Made by a program: the position numbers and the translations under genes
Shown here: piece by piece, positions 10,044 to 34,938 of the stretch
How positions within the stretch are numbered: position 1 is the stretch's first letter
How the letters are laid out: each line of letters opens with the position of its first letter
The notes under the pieces: generated by a model
Database searches by the model: none
Told to the model about the DNA's origin: nothing
The model's input: only the letters and a program-made list of their open reading frames with translations
DNA from: an uncultured Gemmatimonadota bacterium
Lineage (GTDB): Bacteria > JAAXHH01
DNA: 64,000 bases
NCBI GenBank assembly: GCA_951812955.1
Contig: OX638340.1
Location: forward strand, 192,001-256,000
Reading direction: 5' to 3'

Positions 10044-10931
10044 GTGGAAGTCATCAACCAGATCTGGTCTCACCTGGTTCGCACCAAGGGCAAGCGGCTC
10101 AGGCCCGCGCTGGTTTTCCTTTCCGCCTCGGCATATGGCTCGCCGTGCAGAGAGACCATGCTGGCGGCATTTATCATCGAGCTCTGCCATACCGCGACGC
10201 TGATCCACGACGACGTGGTCGACCGGGCGACGACCCGGCGCGGACTGCCCACGCTGAATTCAGTCTGGGACAACCATGTCTCGGTGCTCATGGGCGACAA
10301 CGTGATCGCAAGGGTGTTGACGCTGATCGCGAAACTGGATTGTTCGAGGATCACGACGAAAATAGCGGAATGCGTCGAACGGCTGACCGAGGGCGAGTTG
10401 CACCAGGCCATACGCCGGTTCAACATCAGTACGACCGAGGCGGAGTATTACCGCATCATCAGCAACAAGACGTCTTCGCTCATTGCATGCGGCTGTGATT
10501 CCGGAGTTTACCTTTCGAGTCAGTCGGTCGAGACCGCCCGCCGGTTCGGCGAGTTCGGCGAGAAGCTCGGGATGGCGTTTCAGATTACCGACGACATCCT
10601 GAATTTCACGGGAGACGAGGACGTCATCGGCAAACCGAGAGGTAACGATTTCCGGGAAGGCACGGTTACCCTGCCCCTGATCCATGCCCTCCGCAACGCC
10701 TCCAGCGACGGAAACCGGCGCGTGGAGCAATTGCTTGAAACGGAGTGGAGCGACCGCGTCTGCGACGAGATCGTCGAATTCGTCCACGTCCACGACGGCA
10801 TCCGTTACGCGAAAGGCAAGGCGCTGGCATACGCGGAAGAGGCCAAGAAGATCCTGGCCGAAGAACCGGAGACCCCTGCGAAGCAAGCCCTGTTGAACAT
10901 GGTGGATTACGCCATTGAACGGGATCGATGA
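10044..10931 (+). CDS. ispB: Long-chain polyprenyl diphosphate synthase (IspB-like, octaprenyl/heptaprenyl)
   Basis: Trans-IPPS motifs IHDDVVD and ITDDIL; GTG is the first canonical start after the in-frame TAA at 9933, yet the conserved N-terminal helix appears to extend upstream (see finding). Confidence 0.8.
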   Translation: MEVINQIWSHLVRTKGKRLRPALVFLSASAYGSPCRETMLAAFIIELCHTATLIHDDVVDRATTRRGLPTLNSVWDNHVSVLMGDNVIARVLTLIAKLDCSRITTKIAECVERLTEGELHQAIRRFNISTTEAEYYRIISNKTSSLIACGCDSGVYLSSQSVETARRFGEFGEKLGMAFQITDDILNFTGDEDVIGKPRGNDFREGTVTLPLIHALRNASSDGNRRVEQLLETEWSDRVCDEIVEFVHVHDGIRYAKGKALAYAEEAKKILAEEPETPAKQALLNMVDYAIERDR

Positions 10932-10938
10932 TGCATGT

Positions 10939-11814
10939 ATGGATTCTATATCCGTAATCGTCATTACCTATAACGAAGAACCGCATATCGATTCCTGTCT
11001 GCGGAGCGTTTCATGGGTCGACGAAATCGTGGTGGTGGATTGCGGCAGCAGCGATCGCACGGTTGAGATCTGCAACGGCCACGAGAAAGTCCGGCTGTTT
11101 CATGTAGACCGGCACGGCAGTGGACAGCAGAAACAACAGGCCCTGGACCGGGCGGTTTCCGAATGGGTGCTGAACCTGGACGCGGACGAACGGCTCAGCG
11201 AATCCCTGCAGTCGGACATACGGCGCCTCCTCGAGACACCGGCGCCCTGCGACGGTTACCATATACCAAGGGAGAACTACTTCCTCGCCAGGCATATCCG
11301 GCACGCGGCGGGATGGGGAGACGACCGGCCGCTCCGGCTGCTCCGACGGACGAAGGCGGCCGTCACCCGGACCCAGGTGCACGAGACCTTCGTGGTGGAC
11401 GGACCGACCGGCAGGCTCGAATCTCCCCTGATACACGATGCCTACACCAGCCTGTACCAGTATATCGAGAAGCTGAACGAATACACGTCGATCGAGGTGA
11501 GAAACCGGCTCAAGGCGCGGCCGGACCGAAAGATTACCTGGGTGCACATTGCCCTCGCTCCCCTGGGCACGTTCTGGAAGTTGTACGTGATGAAACGAGG
11601 GTATCTCGATGGGATGCAAGGGCTTTTGCTTTGTGTCCTTTCATCTGTATCGGTCATGTCCGGGTACGCGAAGACATGGGAATACGGGATGTACAGGAAG
11701 CGGGGCGGCCGGATGTTCCCGCCCATTCGGACCGAGGAAGTAAGGACCCGGCAACCGGGCTACAACCGGCTGATCCGGGATGGCGACGAAGAATTCAACT
11801 GGAAGGATGATTGA
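10939..11814 (+). CDS. Glycosyltransferase family 2 (WaaE/KdtX-like LPS-core glycosyltransferase), paralog 1
   Basis: N-terminal SISVIVITYNEE...VVVDCGSSDRT...LNLDADERL GT-A motif set; ATG at 10939 preferred over upstream TTG at 10915. Confidence 0.8.
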   Translation: MDSISVIVITYNEEPHIDSCLRSVSWVDEIVVVDCGSSDRTVEICNGHEKVRLFHVDRHGSGQQKQQALDRAVSEWVLNLDADERLSESLQSDIRRLLETPAPCDGYHIPRENYFLARHIRHAAGWGDDRPLRLLRRTKAAVTRTQVHETFVVDGPTGRLESPLIHDAYTSLYQYIEKLNEYTSIEVRNRLKARPDRKITWVHIALAPLGTFWKLYVMKRGYLDGMQGLLLCVLSSVSVMSGYAKTWEYGMYRKRGGRMFPPIRTEEVRTRQPGYNRLIRDGDEEFNWKDD

Positions 11815-11820
11815 GACCCG

Positions 11821-12807
11821 ATGGGCCTGAAAGACACCTTTTACAAGACCGCGTCCCGGTACGAACCGCTTCAGCGGGTCCTGCGCAATGCCGTCGTCGC
11901 GCGTAAACTGCGATTTCCCGAAGTGATCAGCATCGAGTCTTCGAGTTTCTGCAATGCCGACTGCATCATGTGCCCGAGGGAGCTGCTCAGCCGCAAGAAG
12001 GGCAACATGTCCATGGAGCTGTACCGCAAGATCATCGACGAGTGCGCCGAGAACGCCCGGTACATCAAGCTCGTACAGCCCTTCATGTTCGGTGAGTCCT
12101 TCATCAACAAGCAACTCGTCGACATGATCGCGTATACGAAAAACCGGCTGCCCCGCGTGCCGGTCAGTGTGAGCACCAACGGTTCCCTCATCGATCCCCG
12201 GAAGGCCCAGGAGCTCATCGACTGCAAGCTGGACAAGATCAACATCGATATCGACGGGGCGACGGCGGACACCTTCGAAGCGGTGCGCGTGGGTCTCGAT
12301 TACAAACAGGTGGTGGAAAACGCGCGGTACTTGATGGAGCTGAAACGGTCCACCGCCAGCCGGACGCCCGAAATCACGGTGACGATCATCAATATGGAAG
12401 AAACCCAGCACGAAGTCGAGGCGTTCCGGGAGCTGTGGGCGCCCATCGCCGACAACGTGGTCGTGCAAAGCTACACCACGTGGACCGGAAGCGTGGATGA
12501 CAAGAACGTGGGTGATCAGGCCGCGGCTTCGGCGGTGGGCGGTTTCACCTTTCCCTGCAAGCATCCCTGGGAGGAGTTCGTCATCGCCAACGACGGCCGC
12601 GTGTCCATCTGCTGCCTCGATTTCGACTTCAAGGTGGAGGTGGGCGACGTATCGAAGCAATCGATCAGGGAGGTCTGGAACGGCGCTCCGATCGAGGAGA
12701 TCCGGCAGAAGATGATCGAGAACAGGTACGACGAACTCGAGATCTGCAGCCAGTGCAACAACTACATCTTTCAGACCGAATGCGCCTGGCACCAGGTGTG
12801 GAAGTGA
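11821..12807 (+). CDS. Radical SAM enzyme with C-terminal SPASM/twitch-type auxiliary cysteine cluster
   Basis: CNADCIMC (CxxxCxxC) near N-terminus; C-terminal cysteines CKHPW...ICCLD...CSQCNNY...C; sits inside the glycosyltransferase locus. Confidence 0.8.
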   Translation: MGLKDTFYKTASRYEPLQRVLRNAVVARKLRFPEVISIESSSFCNADCIMCPRELLSRKKGNMSMELYRKIIDECAENARYIKLVQPFMFGESFINKQLVDMIAYTKNRLPRVPVSVSTNGSLIDPRKAQELIDCKLDKINIDIDGATADTFEAVRVGLDYKQVVENARYLMELKRSTASRTPEITVTIINMEETQHEVEAFRELWAPIADNVVVQSYTTWTGSVDDKNVGDQAAASAVGGFTFPCKHPWEEFVIANDGRVSICCLDFDFKVEVGDVSKQSIREVWNGAPIEEIRQKMIENRYDELEICSQCNNYIFQTECAWHQVWK

Positions 12808-12887
12808 TGCCGGTCCACTCGTATCCCGCCTGAATGGGCAGGCCGCCCGGATACCCGTAAGCGTCCCCTTTTTAAATCTCCTTCGAC

Positions 12888-14045
12888 ATGAGGAATACCA
12901 TGGACCGCATGGCGCCCGCGCGCATCCTGCAGGTGTGTTCCTCCCTGGCCTGGGGTGGTACGGAGATGCACGTGCCGATCCTGTCGGGTAAACTCAGGGC
13001 CCGCGGCCACGACGTGCGTCTGGTGCTTCATCCGAAGGGATCGATCGCCGGCGAGTCACGGGAATTGGGTTTCCCGACCGAGACCATCCCCATCGGCGGA
13101 TACGTGAATCCGGTTACTACCTGTGCGCTGGGGCGGTGCATACGGCGCTTCAGGCCTCGTGTCATCCACCTCCACCTTTCCCGCGACCTCTGGCAGACCG
13201 TGCCCGCTGCGCGGTTGGCGGGATACGACGGGCCGGTCGTCCTCACCAAGCACGTGGGTTCCTACGTGACGAAAACGGACCCTCTGCACCGCTGGCTGTA
13301 CCGCCGCGTGTCCCGCGTCATTACGGTATCGGAGACGTTGAACCGGAACGTGCGCGAGACCTGTCCCATCGACCCGGAACGCGTAGTAACCGTGCATCCG
13401 GCTCTGGACCTGGAACGGTTCGATCCCACCGGTTACGATCGGATGGAAACGAGAAAGTCGCTTGGATTCCCGTCCGGCGCCGTCGTGGTGGGGACCGTGG
13501 GGCGCGTTTCTCCGGGAAAGGGGTACGAAGAGTTCCTGCAGGCCGCCCGGTTGCTCCGGGACCGCCATCCCGATGTGCCCCTGCGTTTCCTCGTGGCGGG
13601 CGAGGCCAGCTACGGAGAGGAAGCCTACCACGACGGAATCGTTCATTACGCCCGGGAACTCGACCTCGCTGAGACCGTTCTTTTCGCGGGTTTCAGGCGG
13701 GATATTCCCGCCTTGCTGAACGCCATGGACGTTTTTATATTTCCCTCCAGAGCGGAGGGATTCGGCGCGACCGTCATCGAGGCGATGGCCATGGGCGTTG
13801 CCTGCGTATCGACCCGGTCCGACGGGACGCTGGACACCGTGGAGGACGGGGTAACGGGCCTGGTCTTCCAGGGAGGCGACGCGGAAGGGCTTGCGCGGTC
13901 GGTCGAATCGCTGCTTACGGACGAGCAGTTGCGCACGCGCATCGCGGAGAACGGCTGCAGACAGGCCAGGGAACGCTTTAATCTCGATGCCATGACCGAC
14001 CGCGTGGAAGCGCTCTACGCCGAATCAAAAGCCCATCCCGCCTGA
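12888..14045 (+). CDS. Glycosyltransferase family 4 (GT-B, group 1)
   Basis: GT4 architecture: N-terminal WGGTEMHV, C-terminal FIFPSRAEGFGATVIEAMAMGVACV E-x7-E region. Confidence 0.8.
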   Translation: MRNTMDRMAPARILQVCSSLAWGGTEMHVPILSGKLRARGHDVRLVLHPKGSIAGESRELGFPTETIPIGGYVNPVTTCALGRCIRRFRPRVIHLHLSRDLWQTVPAARLAGYDGPVVLTKHVGSYVTKTDPLHRWLYRRVSRVITVSETLNRNVRETCPIDPERVVTVHPALDLERFDPTGYDRMETRKSLGFPSGAVVVGTVGRVSPGKGYEEFLQAARLLRDRHPDVPLRFLVAGEASYGEEAYHDGIVHYARELDLAETVLFAGFRRDIPALLNAMDVFIFPSRAEGFGATVIEAMAMGVACVSTRSDGTLDTVEDGVTGLVFQGGDAEGLARSVESLLTDEQLRTRIAENGCRQARERFNLDAMTDRVEALYAESKAHPA

Positions 14046-14063
14046 TCACGGTCCCGGCCCTTC

Positions 14064-15998
14064 ATGAACCTGTATCTCCGAATACTGTCCTATGTAAAGC
14101 CCTACTGGTACTTCATGGCCGGCGCCATGGTGTGCATGGCCTTCTTTGCGCTGACCAGCAGCGCAACGGTCTGGGTGGCCCTGCCCTTTCTGCAGACCCT
14201 GTTCGGCCATCAAACCGTACAGACGGACCAGTCCGGGCAGACCGGGCAAACCGTACAGACGGACCAGACCGGGCAGTCCGGGCAGACCGGGCAGTTCGAC
14301 TTGGCGCGGGATTCGGCGAACCGGTTGGAGCAACGGGCCGGGATGGCGGGCCTGCGCGAGTCGTTGAAGGATCGCACCAACGCCCTGATCACCCGGCCGA
14401 CCAGGCAGGCTACGCTGGAACGCCTCTGCCTGATCATCCTGTTCATCCTCCTGATCAAGAACATCAGCAGTTACCTGCAGGCCTACCTGATGGCCTACGC
14501 CGAGAACGGGGTCATCAAGGACCTACGGAACCATCTCTATATCCACCTTCACCGCCTTTCCCTGTCCTACTTCCACCGTGAACGCACGGGAGAGCTCATC
14601 TCCCGCGTGTCCTACGACGTCATGAAGATCAACGGGACGGTTTCCGCCGCCTTCGGGACGTTGATCAAGGAACCTATGCTGGTGGTGGTCTACCTCGCGA
14701 TCCTCTTGATCCTGAGCTGGCAATTGACGCTGGTCTCCCTGGTGCTTCTTCCCTTCAGCGTCCTCGTCATCACCACGGTGGGCAGGCGGCTGCGCCGGAG
14801 CAGCACCGCCTCACAGGAAGCCATGGCCGATCTGACCTCGACGCTCCAGGAGACCGTGGCCGGCGTACGGGTGGTCAAGGCCTTCAACATGGAATCCTTC
14901 GAGATCGGCAAGTTCAAGCGGCAGACCCAGCATTACTTCGCCACGCTGCTTCGACTGACCCACATGCACAACCTGGCCAGCCCCATCACGGAGATCCTGG
15001 GCAGCTTCGTCGGCCTGGCGATCCTCTGGTACGGCGGCCGGCAGGTCCTCGAAGGCGGCCTGCTTGCTCCGGAGGATTTCCTGACATTCTTTCTCGCCCT
15101 CTTTTCCATGATGAAACCGGTCAAGGAACTCGGACAGGTGCACAACCGAATCCAGGAGGGAATCGCGGCCGCCGACCGCGTGTTTTCGATCCTGGACACG
15201 GCGCCCGAAATCACGGACGCGCCCGAAGCGGAGCGGCTTCCCGACCTGCGGCGGGAAATCCGGTTCCACCGTGTTGCCTTCCGGTACGACAGGTCCGCCG
15301 AACCCGCCCTTGAGGATATCGATCTCGTGGTCCGATCGGGAGAGACCGTGGCCCTCGTGGGACCGAGCGGTGGTGGCAAGTCCACCCTGGTTGACCTCGT
15401 CGCACGGTTTTACGACCCGACCTGCGGGCGTATCGAGATAGATGGGAAAGACCTGCGTTCGGTCACCGTGGCGTCCCTCCGGGACAAGATGGGCATCGTG
15501 ACACAGGACGTGATCCTGTTCAACGACACGGTCCGCAACAATATCGCTTACGGCGTGCAGGACATGCCCGTGGACCGGATACAATCCGCCGCGGCTGCTG
15601 CCAACGCGGATGCCTTCATCGACCAGTTGCCCGATGGATACGAAACATATCTCGGGGAACGCGGCGTGCGTCTCTCCGGGGGCCAGCGCCAGCGTATCGC
15701 GATCGCAAGGGCCATCCTGAAGGATCCCCAGATCCTCATATTCGACGAGGCCACCTCCAGTCTGGATACCGAGTCCGAACTGCTGGTCCAGGAGGCCATC
15801 GACCGGTTGATGGCGGGGAGGACGGCCCTGGTCATCGCCCATCGCCTGTCGACCGTGCAGAAGGCGGACCGGGTGGTCGTGGTCGACCGTGGCCGTATCG
15901 TGCAGACCGGCGATCACGGATCGCTGATCCGGGAAGACGGCCTGTACCGGAAGCTCTACAATCTGCAGTTCCGGGACCAGGAACCCGTCGCGGAATAA
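14064..15998 (+). CDS. msbA: MsbA-like lipid A/glycolipid ABC exporter (fused TMD-NBD) with ~60-aa repeat-containing insertion in first extracytoplasmic loop
   Basis: Six-TM domain plus NBD with Walker A GPSGGGKST, signature LSGGQRQR, Walker B ILIFDEATS; 644 aa vs ~580 typical. Confidence 0.85.
   Translation: MNLYLRILSYVKPYWYFMAGAMVCMAFFALTSSATVWVALPFLQTLFGHQTVQTDQSGQTGQTVQTDQTGQSGQTGQFDLARDSANRLEQRAGMAGLRESLKDRTNALITRPTRQATLERLCLIILFILLIKNISSYLQAYLMAYAENGVIKDLRNHLYIHLHRLSLSYFHRERTGELISRVSYDVMKINGTVSAAFGTLIKEPMLVVVYLAILLILSWQLTLVSLVLLPFSVLVITTVGRRLRRSSTASQEAMADLTSTLQETVAGVRVVKAFNMESFEIGKFKRQTQHYFATLLRLTHMHNLASPITEILGSFVGLAILWYGGRQVLEGGLLAPEDFLTFFLALFSMMKPVKELGQVHNRIQEGIAAADRVFSILDTAPEITDAPEAERLPDLRREIRFHRVAFRYDRSAEPALEDIDLVVRSGETVALVGPSGGGKSTLVDLVARFYDPTCGRIEIDGKDLRSVTVASLRDKMGIVTQDVILFNDTVRNNIAYGVQDMPVDRIQSAAAAANADAFIDQLPDGYETYLGERGVRLSGGQRQRIAIARAILKDPQILIFDEATSSLDTESELLVQEAIDRLMAGRTALVIAHRLSTVQKADRVVVVDRGRIVQTGDHGSLIREDGLYRKLYNLQFRDQEPVAE
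14211..14294 (+). repeat. In-frame tandem repeat inside msbA encoding QTVQTDQ(S/T)GQTGQ units
   Basis: caaaccgtacagacggaccag...gggcagaccgggcag repeated twice with gggcag(a/t)ccgggcag sub-repeats. Confidence 0.85.
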
Positions 15999-16008
15999 CG
16001 GACGGTGG

Positions 16009-17154
16009 ATGATGTGGTATCCTATCGAGAAGCGTTTCAAGACCCGCGTGCTCAAATGGCTGGCAAGCCATCCCCTGGGACAGCGCCACGCGCCGCCCGG
16101 CACGGTCGATCCGGATGGCATCAACCGGATCCTGATCATCCGGCAGCATGATCAGTTCGGCGATTTCCTGCTGACCACCCCCGCGATCCGTGCGCTGCGT
16201 GCGCGGTTTCCCGATGCGCACCTGTCGCTGGTCGTCCGCGCCTACTTGTATCCCGTGGCCCAGGGCAATCCGGACGTGGACCAGGTCCTGGTTTTCCACG
16301 AATCCGGTTTTCGCTGGCGACCCCGAGACATCCGTTCTTTCGTCGACCTGATGCGCGGGTCCATCGACCTCGCCGTCGTGTTCAATACGGTATCCCATTC
16401 CTTCTCCAGCGACCTGATCGCCTGGCTCTCCGGCGCCCCCGTAGTCATGGGACCCGCGACACCCACTTTCGACCACCTCGATCATAATCCGTTCTACACG
16501 GTAAACGTACCCGTCAATCCCGAACCCAGGCACCAGATCCAGCGAAACCTGGACGTGGTCCGGTATGTAGGCGCGGATACGGAAGACCTTTCCTACGGTT
16601 ATGCCATGTCCGAGGATGAACGGGCCGGAGGACGTGAAGTAGTCGAAGGACAGGCAGGAGGTCCGACCGCGCCCGGAGGCCCCGTGGTCGCCGTCCACTT
16701 CGGAACCGGGGACGTGAGGAAACGATATCCGGTCGGACAACTGGCCCGCGTTTGCGACGAGTTGGCCACCCGACTCTCCGCCCGGATCCTGGTCATACCC
16801 GCACCGGGGGACGAGGCACTGCTGCGCGCCCTGTGCGACGCGGCATCCACGCCCCTGCGCGGGGTGCCGCCCATGTCGCTGCGGAGGGTAGCCGGAGTGC
16901 TCCACGCCGCGGATCTGCTCGTGTGCAATGATACCGGGGTACTTCACCTGGCCGCCGCGGTAGGAACGCCGACTCTTTCCTTCCACGCCACGAGTGATCC
17001 GGCCTACTGGAAACCGCCCGGCGCCGGGCACCGCGCCTTCTATGCCGTCAGCCGGCGGATCGATGAGATCCCGCCGGACCGGGTTTGCCGCGAAATTTCC
17101 GCCATGCTCGATGGTCCCCCCGGGGCCGGAACAGGCGAGATAATCCGCGTCTGA
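16009..17154 (+). CDS. Glycosyltransferase family 9 (LPS heptosyltransferase-like), paralog 1
   Basis: GT9 hallmarks: N-terminal ILIIRQHDQFGDFLLTTPAIRAL, C-terminal VCNDTGVLHLAAAVGTPTLSF. Confidence 0.8.
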   Translation: MMWYPIEKRFKTRVLKWLASHPLGQRHAPPGTVDPDGINRILIIRQHDQFGDFLLTTPAIRALRARFPDAHLSLVVRAYLYPVAQGNPDVDQVLVFHESGFRWRPRDIRSFVDLMRGSIDLAVVFNTVSHSFSSDLIAWLSGAPVVMGPATPTFDHLDHNPFYTVNVPVNPEPRHQIQRNLDVVRYVGADTEDLSYGYAMSEDERAGGREVVEGQAGGPTAPGGPVVAVHFGTGDVRKRYPVGQLARVCDELATRLSARILVIPAPGDEALLRALCDAASTPLRGVPPMSLRRVAGVLHAADLLVCNDTGVLHLAAAVGTPTLSFHATSDPAYWKPPGAGHRAFYAVSRRIDEIPPDRVCREISAMLDGPPGAGTGEIIRV

Positions 17155-17181
17155 ACCCGAATCGATTACGGGCTAATTATC

Positions 17182-17210
17182 TTGACAGGCACCCGGGCTT
17201 CCGGTACCAT
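17182..17210 (+). promoter_or_regulatory. Candidate promoter TTGACA-N17-TACCAT ahead of methyltransferase/DUF4212/SSS operon
   Basis: TTGACA 17182-17187, 17-nt spacer, TACCAT 17205-17210 in the 103-bp gap after the GT9 gene. Confidence 0.4.
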
Positions 17211-17257
17211 GTAGCCCGCTCGCGCGCAGGCCGCAACAGGCATGGAAACTGGTAAAC

Positions 17258-17758
17258 ATGGCGACCAAACTCGATATGGGCTGCGGTCCCTTCGGGAAAC
17301 TGGAAGGCGCCGTCGGCCTGGATATCAATGACGCGGCGCACGTGGACGTCGTGCACGATCTGGACGAGTACCCCTATCCCTTCGTCGACGGCCAGTTCGA
17401 TCATATCGAGATGTCCCACATTCTGGAACATATCCGCCAGCCGGCCAGGGCCATGGACGAAGTTTTCCGCATCGCGCGATCCGGGGCGTCGATCCGTATC
17501 GTCACGCCCCATTACTCTTCCCAGTTGTCCTATGGCGACCTGACCCACTATCATCACTTCGGCTACGTGACGATCACCCAGATGTGCCGGGACGGGCGGT
17601 TCCGAATGGACGGCTGCAGGCTGATTTTCAGCGACATCTACCGGGTACTGGGCATCAGCCTGTTCGCCAACTGGTTTCCCCGGCGTTGGGAGAAATACCT
17701 CGCGTTCATCTTCCCGGGCATGTACGTAGAGGCGAATCTGAGCGTTGTCAAAGCTTGA
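17258..17758 (+). CDS. Small class I SAM-dependent methyltransferase
   Basis: LDMGCGPFG glycine-rich SAM-binding motif I, acidic motif II (VHDLDE), 166 aa. Confidence 0.75.
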   Translation: MATKLDMGCGPFGKLEGAVGLDINDAAHVDVVHDLDEYPYPFVDGQFDHIEMSHILEHIRQPARAMDEVFRIARSGASIRIVTPHYSSQLSYGDLTHYHHFGYVTITQMCRDGRFRMDGCRLIFSDIYRVLGISLFANWFPRRWEKYLAFIFPGMYVEANLSVVKA

Positions 17759-17768
17759 ACGGAACGGG

Positions 17769-18098
17769 ATGAACCGGAGGGCCGACATGGCCGCATCGAC
17801 AGATACCACCGGAAACAAGGCCGCACGGGCCCTGCGCCGGTACTGGCGGGCCAATATTCGGTTCATGGCCGTGTTGCTCGGGCTGTGGGCCCTGGCCGGA
17901 CTGGGCGCCGGCATCCTGTTCGCGGACGCGCTCAACGCTTACCGGATATCCGGCACCGGCTTTCCCCTGGGTTTCTGGTTCGCCCACCAGGGCAGCATCA
18001 TCGTGTTCGTGCTGCTCATCCTGGCCTACTGCCTCTACATGAACCGCCTGGATAAACGGCACCGTCGCGAACTCGAAAGTACGGAACAGGAAGGTTAG
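17769..18098 (+). CDS. DUF4212-type small membrane protein (putative accessory subunit of sodium:solute symporter)
   Basis: ~110-aa two-TM protein immediately upstream of an SSS-family permease, the conserved DUF4212/SSS pairing; start chosen at ATG 17769 (ORF opens at 17745 overlapping the MT gene). Confidence 0.6.
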   Translation: MNRRADMAASTDTTGNKAARALRRYWRANIRFMAVLLGLWALAGLGAGILFADALNAYRISGTGFPLGFWFAHQGSIIVFVLLILAYCLYMNRLDKRHRRELESTEQEG

Positions 18099-18107
18099 AA
18101 TCGGCCT

Positions 18108-19961
<1,854 letters not shown>

Positions 19962-19979: not shown

Positions 19980-20768
19980 ATGTCCATTTCCGTCATAGTC
20001 ATAGCCCGGGACGAAGCCCTCCGGATCGAAACCTGCCTGCAGAGCGCGCGCTTCGCCGACGAGATCGTGCTCGTGGACTCCGGGAGCACGGACGACACCG
20101 TCGCCATCGCGCGGAAGTACGCCGACCAGGTCATCGAATCGGAGTGGCGTGGCTACGGCGCGACCAAGCAACTGGCCCTGGAGCACGCCAGCGGGGACTG
20201 GGTACTCTGGCTGGACGCGGACGAACGCGTCCCGCCGGACCTGCGGGATGAGATCCTCGCCACAGTGGATGCCGGCGAGCATGCCGGATACCGCATCGCT
20301 CGGAAGACGTTTTTCCTGGGACGCTGGATTCGCCACTGCGGCTGGTATCCCGACTACGTACTCCGCCTGTTCCGGCGTGCGGCCGAACCCCGGTTTACCG
20401 ACGACGAGGTCCACGAGTCGCTGCGCATCCAGGGCACGACCGGCGATCTGAAACACCCGATGATTCACGATACCGATCCCACACTCCACCACTACCTCCG
20501 CAAGTTCAACAGTTTTACCAGTCTCGGCGCCCGCCAGCTATACCTGTCTGGCCGGCGTTTCCGTTTGACAGATCTGGTGTTCCGTCCGATTTTTACCCTG
20601 GTGAAAATGTACGTGCTGAAGCGGGGTTTCCTGGATGGCCTGCCCGGCTTCATCTTGTGCGGCCTTTCCGCCTGTTACGTTTTCGCCAAGTACGCCAAGT
20701 TATGGCACCTGCACGCCCGCGGCTCCGCCGACTTCGAATCGGGCGCGGCGGGCGGCCAGTCCTCCTGA
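19980..20768 (+). CDS. Glycosyltransferase family 2 (WaaE/KdtX-like), paralog 2
   Basis: SISVIVIARDEA...VLVDSGSTDDT...WLDADERV; same architecture as 10939-11814. Confidence 0.8.
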   Translation: MSISVIVIARDEALRIETCLQSARFADEIVLVDSGSTDDTVAIARKYADQVIESEWRGYGATKQLALEHASGDWVLWLDADERVPPDLRDEILATVDAGEHAGYRIARKTFFLGRWIRHCGWYPDYVLRLFRRAAEPRFTDDEVHESLRIQGTTGDLKHPMIHDTDPTLHHYLRKFNSFTSLGARQLYLSGRRFRLTDLVFRPIFTLVKMYVLKRGFLDGLPGFILCGLSACYVFAKYAKLWHLHARGSADFESGAAGGQSS

Positions 20769-20793
20769 AACCGCACCTTCACCGGCGACTCCC

Positions 20794-21606
20794 ATGCAAA
20801 CGCTGTCCGTCGTGGTAATCACCCGCAATGAGGAACGGAAACTCCGCTGCTGCCTGGATCCCGTCTCCTGGGCCGACGACATCGTCGTAGTAGACAGTTA
20901 CAGCACCGACGCCACGGTGGAAATCGCGGAAACCTACACCGGCCGCGTGTTTCGTCGGGCCTGGTCCGGCTTTGCCGACCAGCGGAATTTCGGCATGGAG
21001 CAGGCCCGCGGGGAATGGATACTCTTTCTCGACGCGGATGAATACGTCACCGGCGGGCTCGAGCAGCGTATTCGCGAATTGTTGCGGGACGGCGGGGACT
21101 ACGACGCCTACAAGATCCATCGCCTGGAACACTTCCTTCGGTTTCCGATCAGACACGGGACCCTCAATCCGAGTTACCAGCCCCGGCTGCTGAGAAAAGG
21201 GAAGGGGTACTGGACGGGCGGCGCGCACGCCCATATCGAGGTAGACGGCCACGGCGAACTGGGCCTGATCCACGAGGACCTCTACCATGATTCGCACAAC
21301 TCGCTCTCCGATTTCATCGAACGGATCAACCAGTACACCACGGTGGACGCGGAAGAGCGTATTCTGGCGGGGCAGCGTGTGGGACGACTGCGCCTGGTGC
21401 TTTCACCTGTCGGGATGGCCTGGAAGTGCTATATCGTTAAAAAGGGGTACCGGGACGGGTTCCCCGGCCTGCTGTTCAGCCTTTGTATGGGGATCTATTC
21501 GTTCCTGAGGCTGGTCAAGGTCTGGCAGCACGGATCCCGGGTAGAGGAGCGTACGGAAGGCCGGGCGAAGGATAACCCGGAAGGCCGGGCGCAGTCGCCG
21601 TCGTGA
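20794..21606 (+). CDS. Glycosyltransferase family 2 (WaaE/KdtX-like), paralog 3
   Basis: TLSVVVITRNEE...VVVDSYSTDAT...FLDADEYV; ATG at 20794 chosen (upstream part of ORF overlaps previous gene). Confidence 0.8.
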   Translation: MQTLSVVVITRNEERKLRCCLDPVSWADDIVVVDSYSTDATVEIAETYTGRVFRRAWSGFADQRNFGMEQARGEWILFLDADEYVTGGLEQRIRELLRDGGDYDAYKIHRLEHFLRFPIRHGTLNPSYQPRLLRKGKGYWTGGAHAHIEVDGHGELGLIHEDLYHDSHNSLSDFIERINQYTTVDAEERILAGQRVGRLRLVLSPVGMAWKCYIVKKGYRDGFPGLLFSLCMGIYSFLRLVKVWQHGSRVEERTEGRAKDNPEGRAQSPS

Positions 21607-21626
21607 AGGACAATTCGGACTGAATC

Positions 21627-22586
21627 ATGTCACAGGACGAACGATGCAGTATCGTGATACCGACGTGGAACGCGGGTTCATTGATCGAACGGTGCCTGCG
21701 CGCACTGAAGGATCACGGGGAAGCGGACCGTACGGAGATCGTAGTGGTCGACGACGGCGGCACGGACGACTCCGTCGAAAGGATAGAGGCGGCCTGTCCG
21801 GATGCGGTCCTGGCCAGGCACGGGGAGAACAGGGGTTTTGCCGCGGCGTGCAACACGGGCGTGGCCCGGGCTTCGCACGAAGTCGTGGTCCTGCTCAACA
21901 ACGACATCGTCGCCACCGGCCCGTTCCTGGATCCGCTCCTTTCCCATTTCCGGGATGACCGGGTGTTCGCTGTCAATCCCCGGGTCTACCACGCCTCGGA
22001 TCGGCGTCCCGGCGGCGGGTTGGTGCGGGGGTACATGCACTGCGGGCTGTTACGACTCAGGTGGGCCGAAAGCGAGTCCCGGCGCGAAGCCGGAGGACTC
22101 ACGCTGTACGCCAACGGGGCCGCCATGGCGGTTTCCAGGGAAAAGTACCTGTCGCTCGGTGGATTCGACACCCTGTACGCGCCCTTTTACTCGGAAGACC
22201 TGGACCTGTCCTACCGTGCGTACCAGCGGGGATGGACCGTGCAATATGAACCGGAAAGCCGGCTTGACCACGATCACGGCGCCACGATCGGCGCCCGACA
22301 TGATCAGACCCGCATCGACCGGGTCAGCATGAGAAACCGGATCCTCTTCGTGTGGCGCAACGTACGGGACGGGCGGTACCTGGCCGGTCATGTCCTTTGG
22401 ATGATCGCCCGCTCGTTCGGCGCGATGCTGAAGGGCGATCTGGCCTTTCTTGGGGCGCTTGTGGACGCGACGGCCCGGTGGGGCGCGGTGATGAAGCGGC
22501 GGCGGTCCGATCAGGAACCCGTGGTCTCCGACCGCGAGATCCTGCGATCCACATCCAGGTGGGCCGGTCGCGAACAGGCCGGATAG
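21627..22586 (+). CDS. Glycosyltransferase family 2 (larger GT-A type)
   Basis: CSIVIPTWNAG...VVVDDGGTDDS...LLNNDIV...YSEDLDLSYR (DxD and ED motifs). Confidence 0.75.
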   Translation: MSQDERCSIVIPTWNAGSLIERCLRALKDHGEADRTEIVVVDDGGTDDSVERIEAACPDAVLARHGENRGFAAACNTGVARASHEVVVLLNNDIVATGPFLDPLLSHFRDDRVFAVNPRVYHASDRRPGGGLVRGYMHCGLLRLRWAESESRREAGGLTLYANGAAMAVSREKYLSLGGFDTLYAPFYSEDLDLSYRAYQRGWTVQYEPESRLDHDHGATIGARHDQTRIDRVSMRNRILFVWRNVRDGRYLAGHVLWMIARSFGAMLKGDLAFLGALVDATARWGAVMKRRRSDQEPVVSDREILRSTSRWAGREQAG

Positions 22587-22637
22587 TCGGATTCTGCGCG
22601 CGCTCGGATTCTGCACTTGCTCGGATTCTGCACGACA
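22587..22637 (+). repeat. Three contiguous 17-bp direct repeats (TCGGATTCTGC core) in GT2/GT9 intergenic region
   Basis: tcggattctgcgcgcgc / tcggattctgcacttgc / tcggattctgcacgaca back-to-back immediately upstream of the GT9 start at 22658. Confidence 0.9.
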
Positions 22638-22657
22638 AATGGATAAGTTTGACTACC

Positions 22658-23701
22658 ATGAAAGCACCGGAACTGGATCGGATCCTCATTTCCCGTTTGC
22701 GGTTCATCGGCGATGTCGTGCTTACCACGCCGGTGATCAGGGCGCTGAAGCGTCAGTACCCGGAAGCGGGCCTCTACTTCTTGGCGGAGTCGGGACCCGC
22801 GGCGGTCCTCGCCCGGAACCCCTACCTGGAAGAAGTGATCGTGCTGCCGGATGAGCTCCTTCCAGGCCGGGCCGTCCTGACCCGGTGCGCTGCCCAGGTG
22901 CGGTTCCTTCGTTCATTGCGAAAGCGGCGGTTCGACCTGTCGATCGATCTCTTTGGCAATCCCCGAAGCGCGTTGCTGACCCTGGCCACGGGTGCGCGGT
23001 ACCGGGTCGGCTATGATGTTCGGGGAAGGGGCCGGGCGTATAATGTCAAGATCAGGCGGACCGAATCCCGCCGGGTGCTCGATGCCTACCTGGACGCCGT
23101 ACGGACGATAGGGGTTCCGGTCGAGGACGATCGCACCGAAGTGCATTTCTCCGTGGAAGACGCGAAGTGGGCGGACTCCTGGCTGAAGGCGCGGGGAATC
23201 GACGGAACCCGTCCGATTGTCGCCTTGAACCCCGGCGCCAGCTGGCCCGCCAAGACCTGGAGCGCGGGGCGGTTCGCCGAACTGGCGGCGGGGTTGACCG
23301 GAGAACTGAATGCGGCGGTCCTGCTGGTGGCGGGACCGGGTCAGCGGGATTTCATGAATGTAACAGACGCGCTGACCGCTCATGACTGTCCCGTCGTGCA
23401 TACCGATTCGCTCACCCGTCTGGCGGCGTTGATCCACCGCTGCCGCCTGTACGTTTCAAATGACTGTGGCCCGATGCATATCGCTGTCGCCGTGGGCACG
23501 CCTACGATCGGCCTCTTCGGACCGAGCCGGCCGGAGATCTGGTTTCCCTATTCGGCTGAGGAAGGGCACGTAGCACTGCAGGCCGAAACGGACAACTGCT
23601 GCGGCCGCGATTTCTGCATAAGGTCGACGCCCTGCATCGAATCGATCTCGCCGCGCAAAGTGCTCGACACCGCGGAATCTCTGCTAGGCCGGTCCGTTTA
23701 A
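22658..23701 (+). CDS. Glycosyltransferase family 9 (heptosyltransferase-like), paralog 2
   Basis: ILISRLRFIGDVVLTTPVIRAL ... VSNDCGPMHIAVAVGTPTIGLFG. Confidence 0.8.
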   Translation: MKAPELDRILISRLRFIGDVVLTTPVIRALKRQYPEAGLYFLAESGPAAVLARNPYLEEVIVLPDELLPGRAVLTRCAAQVRFLRSLRKRRFDLSIDLFGNPRSALLTLATGARYRVGYDVRGRGRAYNVKIRRTESRRVLDAYLDAVRTIGVPVEDDRTEVHFSVEDAKWADSWLKARGIDGTRPIVALNPGASWPAKTWSAGRFAELAAGLTGELNAAVLLVAGPGQRDFMNVTDALTAHDCPVVHTDSLTRLAALIHRCRLYVSNDCGPMHIAVAVGTPTIGLFGPSRPEIWFPYSAEEGHVALQAETDNCCGRDFCIRSTPCIESISPRKVLDTAESLLGRSV

Positions 23702-23721
23702 TCACCCAACCGGAATAATCC

Positions 23722-24762
23722 ATGCCCGTATCACCCGAACGAATCCTGGTCATTAAACTGCGAGCCACAGGTGACGTCGTTCTATCTACTCCCGTAATCG
23801 AAAACCTGAAGCGGCGGTTTCCCGGGGCCCGTATCACATTTCTGACGGAAGAGGCCTCCGCTGACGTATTGAGATGGAATGAATTCCTGGATGACCTCAT
23901 CGTGCTGCCGGTTCGTCGGTGGAAACGCGCCGGTTTCCGGCGGTCCTGGCGCGAGCAGGCTCGTTTCTACCGTAACCTGCGCCGCAGGCGTTTCGATCTC
24001 GCGATAGACCTCTTCGGCAACCCGCGCAGCGCCGTGCTGACCTGGCTGAGCGGGGCGGCGAACCGGGTCGGCTACGCCTTCAGGGGGCGTCGCCTCGCCT
24101 ACAACACCGTGGTTGCGCCCCCGGAACGGGCGGGGCACGAGGTCCTTTTCCACCTCGAGGCCCTCGAGGCCCTGGACATCCCGGTTGTCACCAGCCGGCC
24201 AGCCGTCACCATACCCGGGACGGCCGAAGGAAAGGCGCGCCGGTGGCTGCGTGGGCATATCCAGGAAAGCCGCGCGGTCGTTGGGCTGAATCCAGGTGGC
24301 GGATGGGCAATCAAGCGGTGGCCGCCGGACAGTTTCGGCCGCCTGGCAGACGCCCTGATCGATGAATTCGGCGTGGAAGTCCTGGTCATGTGGGGTCCGG
24401 GCGAAGAGGCGCTCGTCGAAGCGGTGGCCGGCGCCATGCGTAACCGTCCCTTCGTTATCCCCGCGGTAACGCTCGCGGAACTCGGCGCCTACCTCAAACG
24501 CTGCTGCCTGCTGGTCAGTAACGACAGCGGTCCGATGCACATGGCCGCGGCGCTGGACGTTCCGACGATCGGTATTTTCGGTCCAACCGATCCCCGGGCC
24601 CAGGGGCCATGGGGCGATGGTCACGGTGTGGTGCGGAAGGAAAGTGTCGACTGTCTCGGCTGCAACCGGGTCGAATGTCCCATCGGCAACATTTGCATGA
24701 CGACGCTGGAACCCCGAGAGGTACTCGAGAAGATACAGCCATACATTCCAGTCGAAGCTTGA
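23722..24762 (+). CDS. Glycosyltransferase family 9 (heptosyltransferase-like), paralog 3
   Basis: ILVIKLRATGDVVLSTPVIENL ... VSNDSGPMHMAAALDVPTIGIFG. Confidence 0.8.
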   Translation: MPVSPERILVIKLRATGDVVLSTPVIENLKRRFPGARITFLTEEASADVLRWNEFLDDLIVLPVRRWKRAGFRRSWREQARFYRNLRRRRFDLAIDLFGNPRSAVLTWLSGAANRVGYAFRGRRLAYNTVVAPPERAGHEVLFHLEALEALDIPVVTSRPAVTIPGTAEGKARRWLRGHIQESRAVVGLNPGGGWAIKRWPPDSFGRLADALIDEFGVEVLVMWGPGEEALVEAVAGAMRNRPFVIPAVTLAELGAYLKRCCLLVSNDSGPMHMAAALDVPTIGIFGPTDPRAQGPWGDGHGVVRKESVDCLGCNRVECPIGNICMTTLEPREVLEKIQPYIPVEA

Positions 24763-24787
24763 CATTAACCGGTCCACATGTTATATT
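24759..24787 (+). promoter_or_regulatory. Candidate promoter TTGACA-N17-TATATT for rng
   Basis: TTGACA 24759-24764 (overlapping the stop of the preceding gene), 17-nt spacer, TATATT 24782-24787. Confidence 0.5.
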
Positions 24788-24847
24788 TTACTACTTTGGA
24801 ACGCTTACTTTAACCGGCTCTCCTGGAGCCAGACAGAAGGTTTTTAT

Positions 24848-26380: not shown

Positions 26381-26407
26381 CTGGACCAAATGAACAAGGA
26401 GTGATCG

Positions 26408-26734
26408 ATGTACGCTGTGATCAGATCGGGCGATCAGCAGTTCAGTGTCAACGAGGGGGATGAGATCCAGGTCGAGAAGATTGCCGCCGAAGTGGGCGAG
26501 GAGATCACCATCGACCAGGTACTCCTCCTGGGCGGCGGGGAGACGCTGGTCGGTACGCCGACGGTGGCCGGTGCTACCGTGACGGCCAGGGTAACGGAAC
26601 AGGGGCGTCATCCCAAAATCGTGGTGTTCAAGATGAAACGCCGTAAGAACTACCGCCGGAAGAGGGGGCACAGGCAGCATTATACCGCGCTCGAAATAAC
26701 CGGCATCAACTACGACCCAAGCGTGACCAACTGA
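26408..26734 (+). CDS. rplU: 50S ribosomal protein L21
   Basis: [14 protein letters not shown]... canonical L21. Confidence 0.92.
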
Positions 26735-26752
26735 TTTGAGAGGAGCCTTGAC

Positions 26753-27007
26753 ATGGCCCACAAGAAAGGCGTAGGGAGTTCTCGCAACGGTAGAGACAGC
26801 AATCCCAAGTTTCTCGGCGTGAAAACCGGAGACGGCATGCGCGTCCGGGCTGGCAACATCCTCGTTCGGCAGCGGGGAACGCGTATTCTACCTGGAACGA
26901 ACGTCGGGCGCGGCAACGACGACACACTCTTTGCCCTCGCGGATGGCGTCGTTCAGTTCCGCCGGCTCGGGAAGAGCCGTACGCAGGTCCATATCGCCAA
27001 CGGGTGA
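26753..27007 (+). CDS. rpmA: 50S ribosomal protein L27
   Basis: [24 protein letters not shown] canonical L27. Confidence 0.92.
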
Positions 27008-27011
27008 TCCC

Positions 27012-29231: not shown

Positions 29232-29304
29232 CGTACTACGTCCGCTGACTGCCGATGGGGTGGTATGGTGGCTTCAGCGGTTGGCCGATGGAAGCGGATA
29301 AGCC

Positions 29305-31125: not shown

Positions 31126-31270
31126 ATTGCCTGCGCTCCTTGCGGACTTGTGCCGTTCGTTCCTCCAGCATGTTTCCGGACGTATGGAAAAAGACACGTA
31201 AATATAAGGGACCGGCTTTTCGTCGGCAACTCATTTGTCCCGGACGGGCGGGCCTGAAGGCAAAAGATGC

Positions 31271-31299
31271 TTGACAGTCTGCCAGACTCCACCTATTTT
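31271..31299 (+). promoter_or_regulatory. Candidate promoter TTGACA-N17-TATTTT for rpmE-prfA-prmC
   Basis: TTGACA 31271-31276, 17-nt spacer, TATTTT 31294-31299; AAGGAG RBS before rpmE. Confidence 0.5.
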
Positions 31300-31373
31300 T
31301 GGCTGGGCGCTTAAACAAACAAGCAGCCCGGCGATGCTTATAACACGGCCGATGACCTCAAGGAGTCAGCCTG

Positions 31374-31577: not shown

Positions 31578-31671
31578 GCCGCGATCGTAGTCGCCCGACC
31601 CTTCCAGGCCCGACAGTCCAGGCTGTTCCCGACTGTCGGATGCCGCCGCTCCCCTACCTTGCCATGCCTCC

Positions 31672-32754
<1,083 letters not shown>

Positions 32755-34937: not shown

Positions 34938-34938
34938 A

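Follow-up and report, generated by a model that had tools for sequence, protein, structure and literature searches.

The radical SAM gene at positions 11,821 to 12,807 of the analysed window (64,000 nucleotides of contig OX638340.1 from an uncultured Gemmatimonadota bacterium) encodes a 328-aa protein which, judging by its sequence, is a soluble enzyme distantly related to the carbohydrate-type enzyme BtrN and carrying a C-terminal Twitch domain with one auxiliary cluster rather than a full SPASM domain. The enzyme most likely modifies an envelope sugar, since its gene lies in an operon of lipopolysaccharide (LPS) core glycosyltransferases (GTs) and the closest relative to have been studied acts on a sugar-like precursor of an antibiotic. 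Its substrate is probably a carbohydrate, which may belong to the LPS core.

The gene and its surroundings comprise the following features (window coordinates, all on the + strand):

10044..10931, +, polyprenyl diphosphate synthase gene, first in the run of same-strand genes (Pfam polyprenyl_synt, 2.1e-66)
10915..11814, +, GT2 glycosyltransferase gene, directly upstream of the radical SAM gene with a 6-bp gap (Pfam Glycos_transf_2, 5.8e-18)
11821..12807, +, radical SAM/Twitch-domain enzyme gene (ATG start, 328 aa)
11950..11973, +, SAM-binding [4Fe-4S] motif CNADCIMC, codons for C44-x3-C48-x2-C51 (aligned to BtrN C16/C20/C23)
12550..12783, +, Twitch (truncated SPASM) domain, residues ~244-321 (Pfam PF13186; predicted ligands C246, C264, C309 and C312, plus C265 and D267)
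12888..14045, +, GT4 glycosyltransferase gene, directly downstream of the radical SAM gene with an 80-bp gap (Pfam Glycos_transf_1, 6.4e-38, and Glyco_transf_4)
14064..15998, +, MsbA-like lipid A/LPS-core flippase (ABC exporter) gene (NCBIfam TIGR02203 MsbA_lipidA, 1.8e-171, 571.5 bits, just below the cut-off of 602)
16009..17154, +, GT9 (heptosyltransferase-family) glycosyltransferase gene (Pfam Glyco_transf_9, 7.4e-20; partial matches to heptosyltransferase I and III models)
19980..22586, +, three GT2 genes in a row, at 19980-20768, ~20794-21606 and 21627-22586 (Pfam Glycos_transf_2 each)
22583..24762, +, two more GT9 genes, ~22583-23701 and 23722-24762, at the end of the GT block (Pfam Glyco_transf_9, 2.5e-38 and 4.5e-39)

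The three consecutive GT2 genes encode proteins of 262, 270 and 301 aa in a contig that encodes an identical radical SAM protein, and the start of the GT9 gene at ~22583-23701 was taken from a 372-aa gene call in locus L094. The genes at 10044-17154 all lie on one strand with gaps of -17, 6, 80, 18 and 10 bp (the polyprenyl synthase and GT2 genes overlap by 17 bp). No terminator-like site was found in any intergenic gap of this run; the promoter and terminator scans, which found no more sites than in shuffled sequence, were used only for these terminator-free gaps. The GC content is uniform across the locus. The initial annotation had placed the gene between a GT2 and a GT4 gene in an LPS-core-like locus, and both points were borne out: the same-strand block spanning 10.9-24.8 kb holds three GT9, four GT2, one GT4 and one MsbA gene, as is characteristic of an LPS inner-core locus. 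The upstream GT2 (10915-11814), which the initial annotation had labelled WaaE-like, matches generic GT2 models only (Pfam, NCBIfam).

Pfam annotation covered 10044-17758 and 19980-39040, minus a few short ORFs and a DUF4212/SSF pair. This pair (17745-19961), as well as nuo genes upstream of the locus, was located through precomputed Pfam hits in the contig encoding the identical radical SAM protein. The annotated part of the window contains only GT genes, MsbA, a small methyltransferase and housekeeping genes. Neither a precursor peptide nor a sulfatase was found there, in agreement with the earlier remark that none is nearby, and no aminotransferase or keto-sugar-processing SDR was detected with Pfam in the 10.9-24.8 kb block.

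The ATG start is correct, because the N-terminus (MGLK...) is kept in homologues. A 383-aa ORF that runs in the opposite direction (11641..12792) is a shadow ORF of the kind usually seen with a gene of 60% GC. The CxxxCxxC motif (CNADCIMC) is present in the ORF exactly as first described, and its cysteines C44, C48 and C51 are invariant in 51 diverse relatives; in BtrN, the aligned C16, C20 and C23 are the residues mutated to knock out the radical SAM cluster (PMC9012708). Pfam confirmed the assignment, with matches to Radical_SAM (PF04055) at residues 39-204 (E = 1.4e-16, 61.6 bits against a gathering score of 29.5) and to SPASM (PF13186) at residues 246-313 (E = 7.8e-15, 55.4 bits against 21.5), both far above chance expectation. 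The AlphaFold2 (AF2) model (pLDDT 95.3) shows the partial TIM-barrel fold of the radical SAM superfamily, with strand 1 preceded by ~30 residues forming two basic helices. No transmembrane segment was recognized in the 328 residues (maximum 19-residue Kyte-Doolittle mean 0.75).

The C-terminal cysteines had been described as typical of SPASM/twitch auxiliary clusters. An auxiliary-cluster domain is indeed indicated by the Pfam and fold matches, and its fold, whose absence would have spoken against the proposal, is predicted by AF2 at pLDDT 95; the assignment to full SPASM did not hold. SPASM domains typically bind two auxiliary clusters via seven or eight conserved cysteines (PMC9477430, PMC9012708). 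In the window protein only C246, C264, C309 and C312 are invariant, both in the 51 diverse relatives and in ~217 aligned relatives; C321 is not conserved among the latter. The CX2CX5CX3C motif is absent, the next cysteine after C309-x2-C312 coming only 8 residues on, so that a single auxiliary cluster can be ligated by the four conserved cysteines. These align one-to-one with C169, C187, C232 and C235 of BtrN, whose auxiliary cluster has four Cys ligands (PMC9012708), and the pattern is that of a Twitch domain, i.e. a truncated SPASM with three or four conserved cysteines and one cluster. The PF13186 match, although above the gathering score, cannot separate the two classes, since the same region (residues 244-323) is also covered by the alignment with BtrN, itself a Twitch enzyme.

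The initial annotation had suggested HMM classification as a check, with membership of an anSME or peptide-maturase clade as the finding that would overturn it. The proposal survived this check. A single-sequence phmmer search matched BtrN over both domains (E = 9e-17), with BlsE as the second solved match. The family profile matched BtrN at 5.9e-37, again over both domains, followed by MoaA (2.6e-13); BlsE was matched at 1.9e-11, and the anSME match (2.5e-7) was restricted to the core. BtrN was also Foldseek rank 1 (target-normalised TM 0.79), with DesII and AprD4 among the further fold matches.

The relationship to BtrN (2-deoxy-scyllo-inosamine dehydrogenase of butirosin synthesis; PDB 4M7T/4M7S) is nevertheless remote, at 19-22% identity. 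BtrN has ~250 aa as against 328; the core region ~154-243 of the window protein is without a BtrN counterpart, as are its two extra N-terminal helices, and Cys265 stands in place of BtrN Phe188. Moreover, BtrN is encoded in an aminoglycoside cluster, whereas the window gene belongs to an LPS-core GT operon with no adjacent aminotransferase. The protein is consequently not a BtrN orthologue (DOIA dehydrogenase) on the grounds of identity, gene context, core length and the Phe188 to Cys replacement. As the core barrel is ~50 residues longer and identity so low, the substrate pocket of BtrN is not transferable.

Of the curated models, only spiro-SPASM (TIGR04321), whose family is itself uncharacterised, aligns along the full length of the window protein (residues 8-315, model positions 204-505 of 510). 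The score of 91.2 bits falls well below the cut-off of 250, and the N-terminal domain of that family (~200 residues) is missing from the window protein; one relative (P0159) has this cytidylyltransferase-like N-terminal half.

The family comprises more than 1000 clusters at 50% identity (E<=1e-30), and none of the relatives reached a curated NCBIfam cut-off. Synteny around the radical SAM gene is identical in homologues down to ~70% identity, the position of the GT2 gene being kept. In the 39-44% identity range, Nitrospinota outgroup loci show the order rSAM-GT9-GT9-O-antigen ligase, and the P0027 outgroup locus the order GT9-GT9-rSAM-GT9-GT2-GT4-GT9, with overlapping genes. A GT4-like gene occupies position +1 in 12 of 20 distant loci; GT4 also headed the neighbour families in 44 further loci and recurs more than any other neighbour type in the family as a whole. 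Gene fusions were also identified among the relatives: GT4-GT4-rSAM (P0171), cytidylyltransferase-rSAM and GNAT-rSAM.

A genome scan with alignment A1 returned mostly one proteobacterial clade (motif SSCFLDW), which differs at residue 265, and the first neighbour census therefore describes a sister clade. The census was repeated on metagenome loci of the Cys-Cys type. Taken as raw counts without background control and resting on a crude gene caller, the censuses were led by GT4, GT2, sugar SDRs, RmlC, and C- and O-methyltransferases; peptide-associated families were absent from the top 25 neighbour families in both. As to the suggestion that the family might consistently co-occur with GT9 and GT2 genes, its family-wide neighbours are indeed carbohydrate genes (GT4, GT2 and sugar SDRs). 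A family-wide link to GT9 was rejected, with GT9 genes near only 2 of the 72 metagenome relatives; the link is seen in the window's lineage, in Nitrospinota and in P0027. The GT9 link is limited to the nearest relatives, with exceptions.

The initial annotation had regarded a sugar- or lipid-directed radical reaction as plausible, naming epimerisation, C-methylation and dehydration. The sugar is favoured by the carbohydrate neighbours and the relationship with BtrN, and epimerisation and alcohol oxidation are the best candidates among the chemistries considered. C-methylation is unlikely, because Radical_SAM and SPASM were the only Pfam domains found: there was no match in the 328 residues to the B12-binding domain PF02310, which is N-terminal in cobalamin-dependent radical SAM methylases, or to another methylase domain.

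Residue 265, which directly follows the auxiliary-cluster ligand Cys264, bears on the choice between the two fitting reactions. It is Cys in 161 of 217 relatives, in 133 of the 150 top representatives and at 70 of the 72 metagenome loci, and Phe in BtrN and in a proteobacterial deoxysugar-cassette clade. The sugar epimerase NeoN (Cys249; PMC10991966) and EpeE (Cys223; PMC13012085) each use a single cysteine to donate the H atom, and mutation of one cysteine turns the Twitch epimerase HygY into a dehydrogenase, according to the title of the HygY paper as cited in PMC10991966. The near-invariant Cys265, a putative equivalent of the donor cysteines of HygY and NeoN, thus favours epimerisation over oxidation, and epimerisation is the outcome that we infer. 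Cys265 might instead be structural.

Our preferred reading, put forward tentatively and short of being probable as a whole, is that the Twitch radical SAM enzyme acts on an LPS-core sugar, or on its activated precursor, during assembly in the cytoplasm, and epimerises it. SAM would be bound by the predicted C44/C48/C51 cluster and cleaved reductively, and the resulting 5'-deoxyadenosyl radical would abstract hydrogen at a carbinol carbon of the sugar residue. The thiol of Cys265 would then quench the substrate radical from the opposite face, making the overall reaction a redox-neutral epimerisation of the sugar. The auxiliary cluster, predicted to be fully Cys-ligated (C246/C264/C309/C312), would have a structural or electron-relay role. 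The lack of a keto-sugar-processing aminotransferase or SDR in the 10.9-24.8 kb block would suit such an epimerase. An alternative to the ADP-heptose 6-epimerase HldD was considered as a candidate specific function. The known Twitch sugar epimerases and dehydrogenases HygY, NeoN and SpeY act on free pseudo-oligosaccharide antibiotics, in contrast to the envelope glycan proposed here.

A BtrN- or SpeY-type dehydrogenase acting on the same class of substrate is a serious, if rather unlikely, alternative. In this case the radical would be deprotonated and an electron passed to the auxiliary cluster, yielding a keto-sugar by two-electron oxidation, which enzymes encoded elsewhere would reduce or aminate, or which would be left as such. 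BtrN is the closest characterised relative by every measure, and the four-Cys auxiliary cluster is as in BtrN, an arrangement proposed to accept electrons, unlike the open-iron, substrate-binding site of MoaA (PMC9012708). In addition, the invariant D267 aligns with BtrN D190. Against oxidation, neither an aminotransferase nor a ketoreductase was found in the locus, and the window's clade has Cys where BtrN has Phe188, while the clade that keeps Phe adjoins SDR genes. Furthermore, to our knowledge, LPS cores do not usually contain keto-sugars as final products.

Other radical chemistry on an envelope glycan or nucleotide sugar, i.e. dehydration or deoxygenation of a 1,2-diol (AprD4-like), decarboxylation (BlsE-like) or C-C bond formation, has little likelihood. 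It is suggested by the BlsE, DesII and AprD4 matches mentioned above and by the SDR genes that flank many distant relatives, which recall a dehydratase/reductase pair.

Equally improbable is a lipid-directed reaction, in which the polyprenyl carrier or the acyl chains of lipid A would be modified before export by MsbA. A polyprenyl synthase gene heads the gene run, which includes MsbA, the N-terminus of the enzyme consists of two basic helices, and archaeal tetraether lipid synthase was among the family-profile matches (8.7e-13). This match is confined to the SAM core (residues 44-164), though, and tetraether lipid synthase has a two-cluster SPASM domain (PMC13459092). Moreover, the adjacency of polyprenyl synthase and MsbA is found only in the window's own lineage, within which the polyprenyl synthase is syntenic, and both are absent from the Nitrospinota and P0027 loci; family-wide, the neighbours are sugar and not lipid enzymes. 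The polyprenyl synthase gene comes after the nuo operon and may function in the synthesis of quinones, and its link with the radical SAM enzyme is uncertain.

We consider it just as unlikely that the position in a GT locus is incidental and that the enzyme has a role unrelated to glycans, e.g. in the maturation of another protein or a cofactor. Some relatives do occur in other surroundings: one with 39% identity lies inside a Bat/MoxR-DUF58-VWA operon, and others adjoin just a methyltransferase, or redox genes such as DsrE, rubrerythrin and rubredoxin. The best partial NCBIfam matches are also to maturase families, namely the tungsten-cofactor oxidoreductase radical SAM maturase (TIGR04317; 104.5 bits, residues 36-228) and a Geobacter metalloenzyme maturase (92 bits), but both are confined to the SAM core and lie far under the respective cut-offs of 380 and 400 bits. 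The GT synteny kept across lineages at 39-44% identity, with overlapping or tightly spaced genes, and the existence of GT4, cytidylyltransferase and GNAT fusions speak against an incidental position.

An anSME- or RiPP-type peptide or protein maturase with its substrate encoded elsewhere, for which the Pfam SPASM match and strong fold matches to SuiB, CteB, SkfB, ChlB and anSME could be cited, is highly improbable: the four conserved cysteines can ligate one auxiliary cluster only (although SkfB is itself a Twitch enzyme; PMC6231123), the anSME profile match is far weaker than that to BtrN, and peptide-associated families are missing from the leading neighbours. In contrast to anSME and the RiPP SPASM maturases (SuiB, CteB, PqqE, SkfB), the window protein has no peptide-recognition domain, precursor gene or true sulfatase: its N-terminal extension (~30 residues, two helices) is too short for an RRE/PqqD domain and gave no PqqD match, the flanking gaps of 6 and 80 bp are too short for even a small ORF, and PF00884 was not matched by any of the scanned window proteins. 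One relative (37% identity, locus L115) has a neighbour of the PF00884 'Sulfatase' family. An anSME-like role prompted by this neighbour was rejected: the protein has 4-5 N-terminal transmembrane segments and no C/S-x-P/A-x-R motif, and therefore looks like a transferase of the LtaS/EptA type and not a formylglycine sulfatase.

The subfamily had been called largely uncharacterised. In accordance with this and with the NCBIfam results, our literature searches found no description of a radical SAM step in the assembly of LPS core, O-antigen or polysaccharide; a mention of radical SAM in a Burkholderia Tn-seq paper concerned HpnH and was not a relevant case. As far as these searches show, the radical SAM enzymes whose sugar chemistry has been characterised to date (BtrN, NeoN, HygY, SpeY, AprD4, DesII and BlsE) come from antibiotic pathways. 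A bolder generalization, possible but more doubtful than the epimerisation proposed for the window, would be that a very large clade of BtrN-like Twitch enzymes (>1000 clusters, C-C-x-D motif) tailors envelope glycans; that in the window's lineage, in Nitrospinota and in the P0027 organism the enzyme, in concert with the GT4 and GT9 transferases encoded next to it, would carry out an NAD-independent, Cys265-mediated epimerisation of a core sugar, and thereby the first known step of LPS-core assembly to use radical SAM chemistry; and that Cys or Phe at position 265 would predict epimerases and dehydrogenases throughout the family.

A large family occurring consistently among glycosyltransferases points to an unrecognised route to unusual envelope sugars, and such sugars shape host recognition, phage receptors and symbiosis. 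The Cys/Phe dichotomy beside an auxiliary-cluster ligand offers a simple, testable rule for predicting the outcome of the reaction. Should the enzyme prove to be a plain BtrN-like dehydrogenase, many thousands of proteins that at present carry no more than the label 'radical SAM/SPASM domain protein' would still gain a useful annotation. From the isolate names of the closest metagenome-assembled genomes, the window's lineage may be associated with sponges or corals.

The radical SAM gene at 11821-12807 (+), with its CNADCIMC-encoding motif, was placed by the initial annotation between a GT2 and a GT4 glycosyltransferase (GT) gene, and this placement is correct. The locus is organized as follows:

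upstream of the GT block: nuo genes and a polyprenyl synthase gene
10915-11814, +, GT2, 6-bp gap to the radical SAM gene
11821-12807, +, radical SAM protein, ATG start, 328 aa
12888-14045, +, GT4, 80-bp gap from the radical SAM gene
14064-15998, +, MsbA-type ABC exporter (TIGR02203, 571.5 bits vs. a cut-off of 602)
then, same strand: GT9, small methyltransferase, DUF4212/SSF pair, three GT2 and two GT9 genes
end at 24762, +, last two GT9 genes of the block
downstream of the GT block: housekeeping genes (RNase G, PGM-like, SurA-like, RF1, PrmC, ProC, then the dcw cluster)

The GT2 gene shares its first 17 bp (10915-10931) with the 3' end of the polyprenyl synthase gene, GC content is even across the locus, and no terminator-like sites were found in the intergenic gaps of 10931-17154. 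As originally remarked, neither a precursor peptide nor a sulfatase was found nearby: the gaps flanking the radical SAM gene leave no room for a precursor ORF, and a Pfam scan covering most ORFs of 10044-17758 and 19980-39040 found no sulfatase or peptide-recognition domain, nor any keto-sugar-processing aminotransferase or reductase. An opposite-strand ORF of 383 aa (11641-12792), spanning nearly the whole radical SAM gene, was rejected as a shadow ORF typical of 60% GC DNA; its translation is of low complexity and rich in Arg, Gly, Asp and His.

Pfam searches revealed a Radical_SAM domain at residues 39-204 (E 1.4e-16) and, in the HMM classification that had been suggested, a SPASM domain (PF13186) at residues 246-313 (E 7.8e-15), both well over the gathering score. 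The protein contains 11 Cys residues, of which only seven (C44, C48, C51, C246, C264, C309 and C312) are invariant among 51 relatives (25-95% identity); the same holds for G91-E92, G259 and D267, at least 90% of the relatives retain C265, and C75, C135 and C321 are variable. In phmmer alignments the SAM-cluster motif C44-N-A-D-C48-I-M-C51 matches, through its three Cys residues, C16/C20/C23 of BtrN (2-deoxy-scyllo-inosamine dehydrogenase of butirosin biosynthesis), the three residues mutated earlier to remove the RS cluster (PMC9012708), and C246/C264/C309/C312 match BtrN C169/C187/C232/C235. The BtrN auxiliary cluster has four Cys ligands (PMC9012708). Homology establishes that the C44/C48/C51 cluster binds SAM and that a second cluster is fully ligated by Cys. 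A SPASM domain has 7 or 8 conserved Cys residues and two clusters, and a Twitch domain 3 or 4 and one cluster (PMC9477430, PMC9012708); judged by its four conserved C-terminal Cys residues, matching those of BtrN, the protein is a Twitch-type enzyme despite the Pfam "SPASM" match. The "SPASM/twitch" pattern first described is thus narrowed to Twitch. An AF2 model built from the 51-sequence alignment is confident (pLDDT 95.3, pTM 0.92): a pair of helices at the N-terminus is followed by a core of alternating strands and helices, and the C-terminal domain is a hairpin plus helix.

BtrN ranked first by four measures, among them a single-sequence PDB search (E 9e-17, the sole match spanning both domains; BlsE second, 7e-6), Foldseek (E 1e-15, target-normalised TM 0.79) and a family-profile search (BtrN 5.9e-37 vs. 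MoaA 2.6e-13, tetraether synthase 8.7e-13 and SkfB 1.5e-11, with weaker matches to BlsE, 1.9e-11, SpeY, 5.1e-9, and anSME, 2.5e-7). With the last of these values the family falls outside the anSME/peptide-maturase group, and the two neighbourhood censuses described below agree, peptide-associated families being absent from the top 25 of both. Orthology with BtrN was rejected, considering the 19-22% identity, the different gene context and a core stretch (residues ~154-243) without counterpart in the BtrN alignment. None of the curated NCBIfam cut-offs was reached by the protein or by eight diverse relatives, and the only model aligning over its full length was the uncharacterised "spiro-SPASM", through the C-terminal half of that model (91 bits vs. 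250). The initial interpretation is supported with a refinement to a BtrN-like Twitch enzyme and not a two-cluster SPASM maturase. The protein is a putative Twitch radical SAM carbohydrate enzyme of envelope-glycan (LPS-core) assembly, with nothing mechanistically unprecedented, from a large unnamed family.

When 1.84 billion cluster representatives were searched exhaustively, 1026 relatives scored E<=1e-30 and 12029 scored E<=1e-10; the top matches were full-length and 30-44% identical. Among the best 150 were three fusions: (i) GT4-GT4-radical SAM (P0171, 1070 aa, two GT4 domains), (ii) a cytidylyltransferase-like domain joined to radical SAM, a spiro-SPASM-like arrangement (P0159, 524 aa) and (iii) GNAT acetyltransferase-radical SAM (P0135, 455 aa). 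An 899-aa ORF in homologue locus L070 (9637-12336) may be a radical SAM-GT4 fusion or a gene-caller artefact.

Close homologues (70-98% identity) have their genes in the same order all the way from nuo to GT2, which is lineage synteny only. Their MAG labels (L014-L040; best match OY762445.1, 98%) are inconsistent, being Candidatus Latescibacterota, Gemmatimonadota/Gemmatimonadetes or plain "bacterium", and the isolate names IRC1, APA, SB0665 and Plut suggest sponge or coral hosts for several. Being independent lineages, the following relatives are informative: Nitrospinota (40-44% identity; radical SAM, GT9, GT9, O-antigen ligase, the other flank holding unrelated genes), P0027 (40%; overlapping genes GT9-GT9-radical SAM-GT9-GT2-GT4-GT9), a Lentisphaerae relative (32%; adjoining GT4 and a sugar SDR) and P0024 (31%; GT2-SDR fusion, DegT aminotransferase, ATP-grasp protein, formyltransferase and WbmS-like protein).

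Neighbours up to three genes away were pooled in two censuses that relied on a crude in-house gene caller, itself checked against the window, and the counts stand without a random-locus control. The first (mostly proteobacterial relatives, 27-32% identity; 20 non-redundant loci, 114 neighbour proteins) gave SDR 14, GT4 14, FkbM 12, RmlC 6, C-methyltransferase 5, GT2 5 and CmcI O-methyltransferase 4. The second (metagenome relatives, 27-43%; 44 non-redundant loci, 144 proteins) gave GT4 19, GT2 10, class-I methyltransferases 10, other radical SAM 10, SDR 8, FkbM 5, O-antigen ligase 4 and polysaccharide deacetylase 3. The glycan-context signal is clear. Of the co-occurrence with GT9/GT2 genes initially put forward as a check, the GT2 part, together with GT4 and sugar enzymes, holds family-wide; GT9 genes lie near only 2/72 metagenome relatives, which confines the GT9 link to the closest relatives. 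Exceptions were a 39% relative with the Cys-Cys motif (P0028; L099 8001-9017, L100 2213-3229), which lies inside a BatD/MoxR AAA/DUF58/VWA/TPR (Bat aerotolerance-type) operon and has no glycosyltransferase gene in its vicinity, one relative with only a methyltransferase beside it, and one adjoining DsrE, rubrerythrin and rubredoxin genes. A PF00884 "Sulfatase"-family protein adjoins a 37% relative (L115 4006-5904); with 4-5 TM segments at its N-terminus and no C/S-x-P/A-x-R (formylglycine) motif, it looks like an LtaS/EptA/OpgB-type transferase, i.e. another envelope-modifying enzyme.

In the predicted reaction, the 5'-deoxyadenosyl radical would abstract H from a sugar carbinol carbon, by analogy with BtrN. 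The substrate would be part of LPS-core assembly on the cytoplasmic side; the protein has no TM segments and its gene lies ahead of MsbA in the operon. BtrN oxidises the substrate radical, the proposed electron acceptor being its auxiliary cluster (PMC9012708); epimerases acting on sugars and peptides return H to the opposite face from one Cys thiol, e.g. NeoN Cys249 (PMC10991966) and EpeE Cys223 (PMC13012085). HygY belongs here too: going by the title of its paper, cited in PMC10991966, a single Cys mutation brings out a dehydrogenase activity. Cys265 directly follows ligand C264, at the position of BtrN Phe188. This position is Cys in 161/217 aligned relatives, 133/150 best representatives and 70/72 metagenome loci; it is Pro in the Lentisphaerae clade and Phe in the proteobacterial clade with the deoxysugar cassette, most of whose members have an SDR gene next door. 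Given this pattern and the lack of keto-sugar-processing genes in the locus, epimerisation, one of the reactions listed initially, is tentatively favoured over oxidation. A BtrN-like oxidation, for which the BtrN precedent speaks, is the less likely outcome, considering that neither an aminotransferase nor a reductase for a keto-sugar was found in the locus and that Cys265 stands in place of Phe188. C-methylation, also listed, is unlikely because Pfam found no cobalamin or methylase domain in the protein. The Cys/Phe difference at residue 265 offers a rule that can be tested.

The residue following the second ligand of the auxiliary cluster divides the family (loci L048-L093 vs. L105-L182): most members, including the window protein, have Cys-Cys, and the Cys-Phe clade, as in BtrN, comprises Hoeflea, Rhizobium, Methylophaga and others. 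In that clade the gene lies within an NDP-6-deoxyhexose cassette of nucleotidyltransferase, 4,6-dehydratase, RmlC, C-methyltransferase, reductase, radical SAM, GT4, FkbM-type methyltransferase and CmcI O-methyltransferase genes.

Several minor features of the GT block were also recorded. The DUF4212 small membrane protein and SSF sodium:solute symporter genes (17745-19961) in its middle are kept in all syntenic homologues. The ORF listed as 20635-21606 overlaps the preceding GT2 gene (20635-20768) and probably starts near 20794, its counterpart in L094, a locus encoding an identical radical SAM protein, having 270 aa. A 17-bp tandem repeat of 2.8 copies (TCGGATTCTGCACGCGC) lies at 22587-22634, where the last GT2 gene meets the next GT9 gene. 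The MsbA-like protein (644 aa vs. the 572-position MsbA model) has a Q/T/G-rich insertion, which includes QTVQTDQSGQTGQTVQTDQTGQSGQTGQ, at 14211-14294, encoded by a tandem repeat with period 9/18/36, which may be why its score falls just under the TIGR02203 cut-off.
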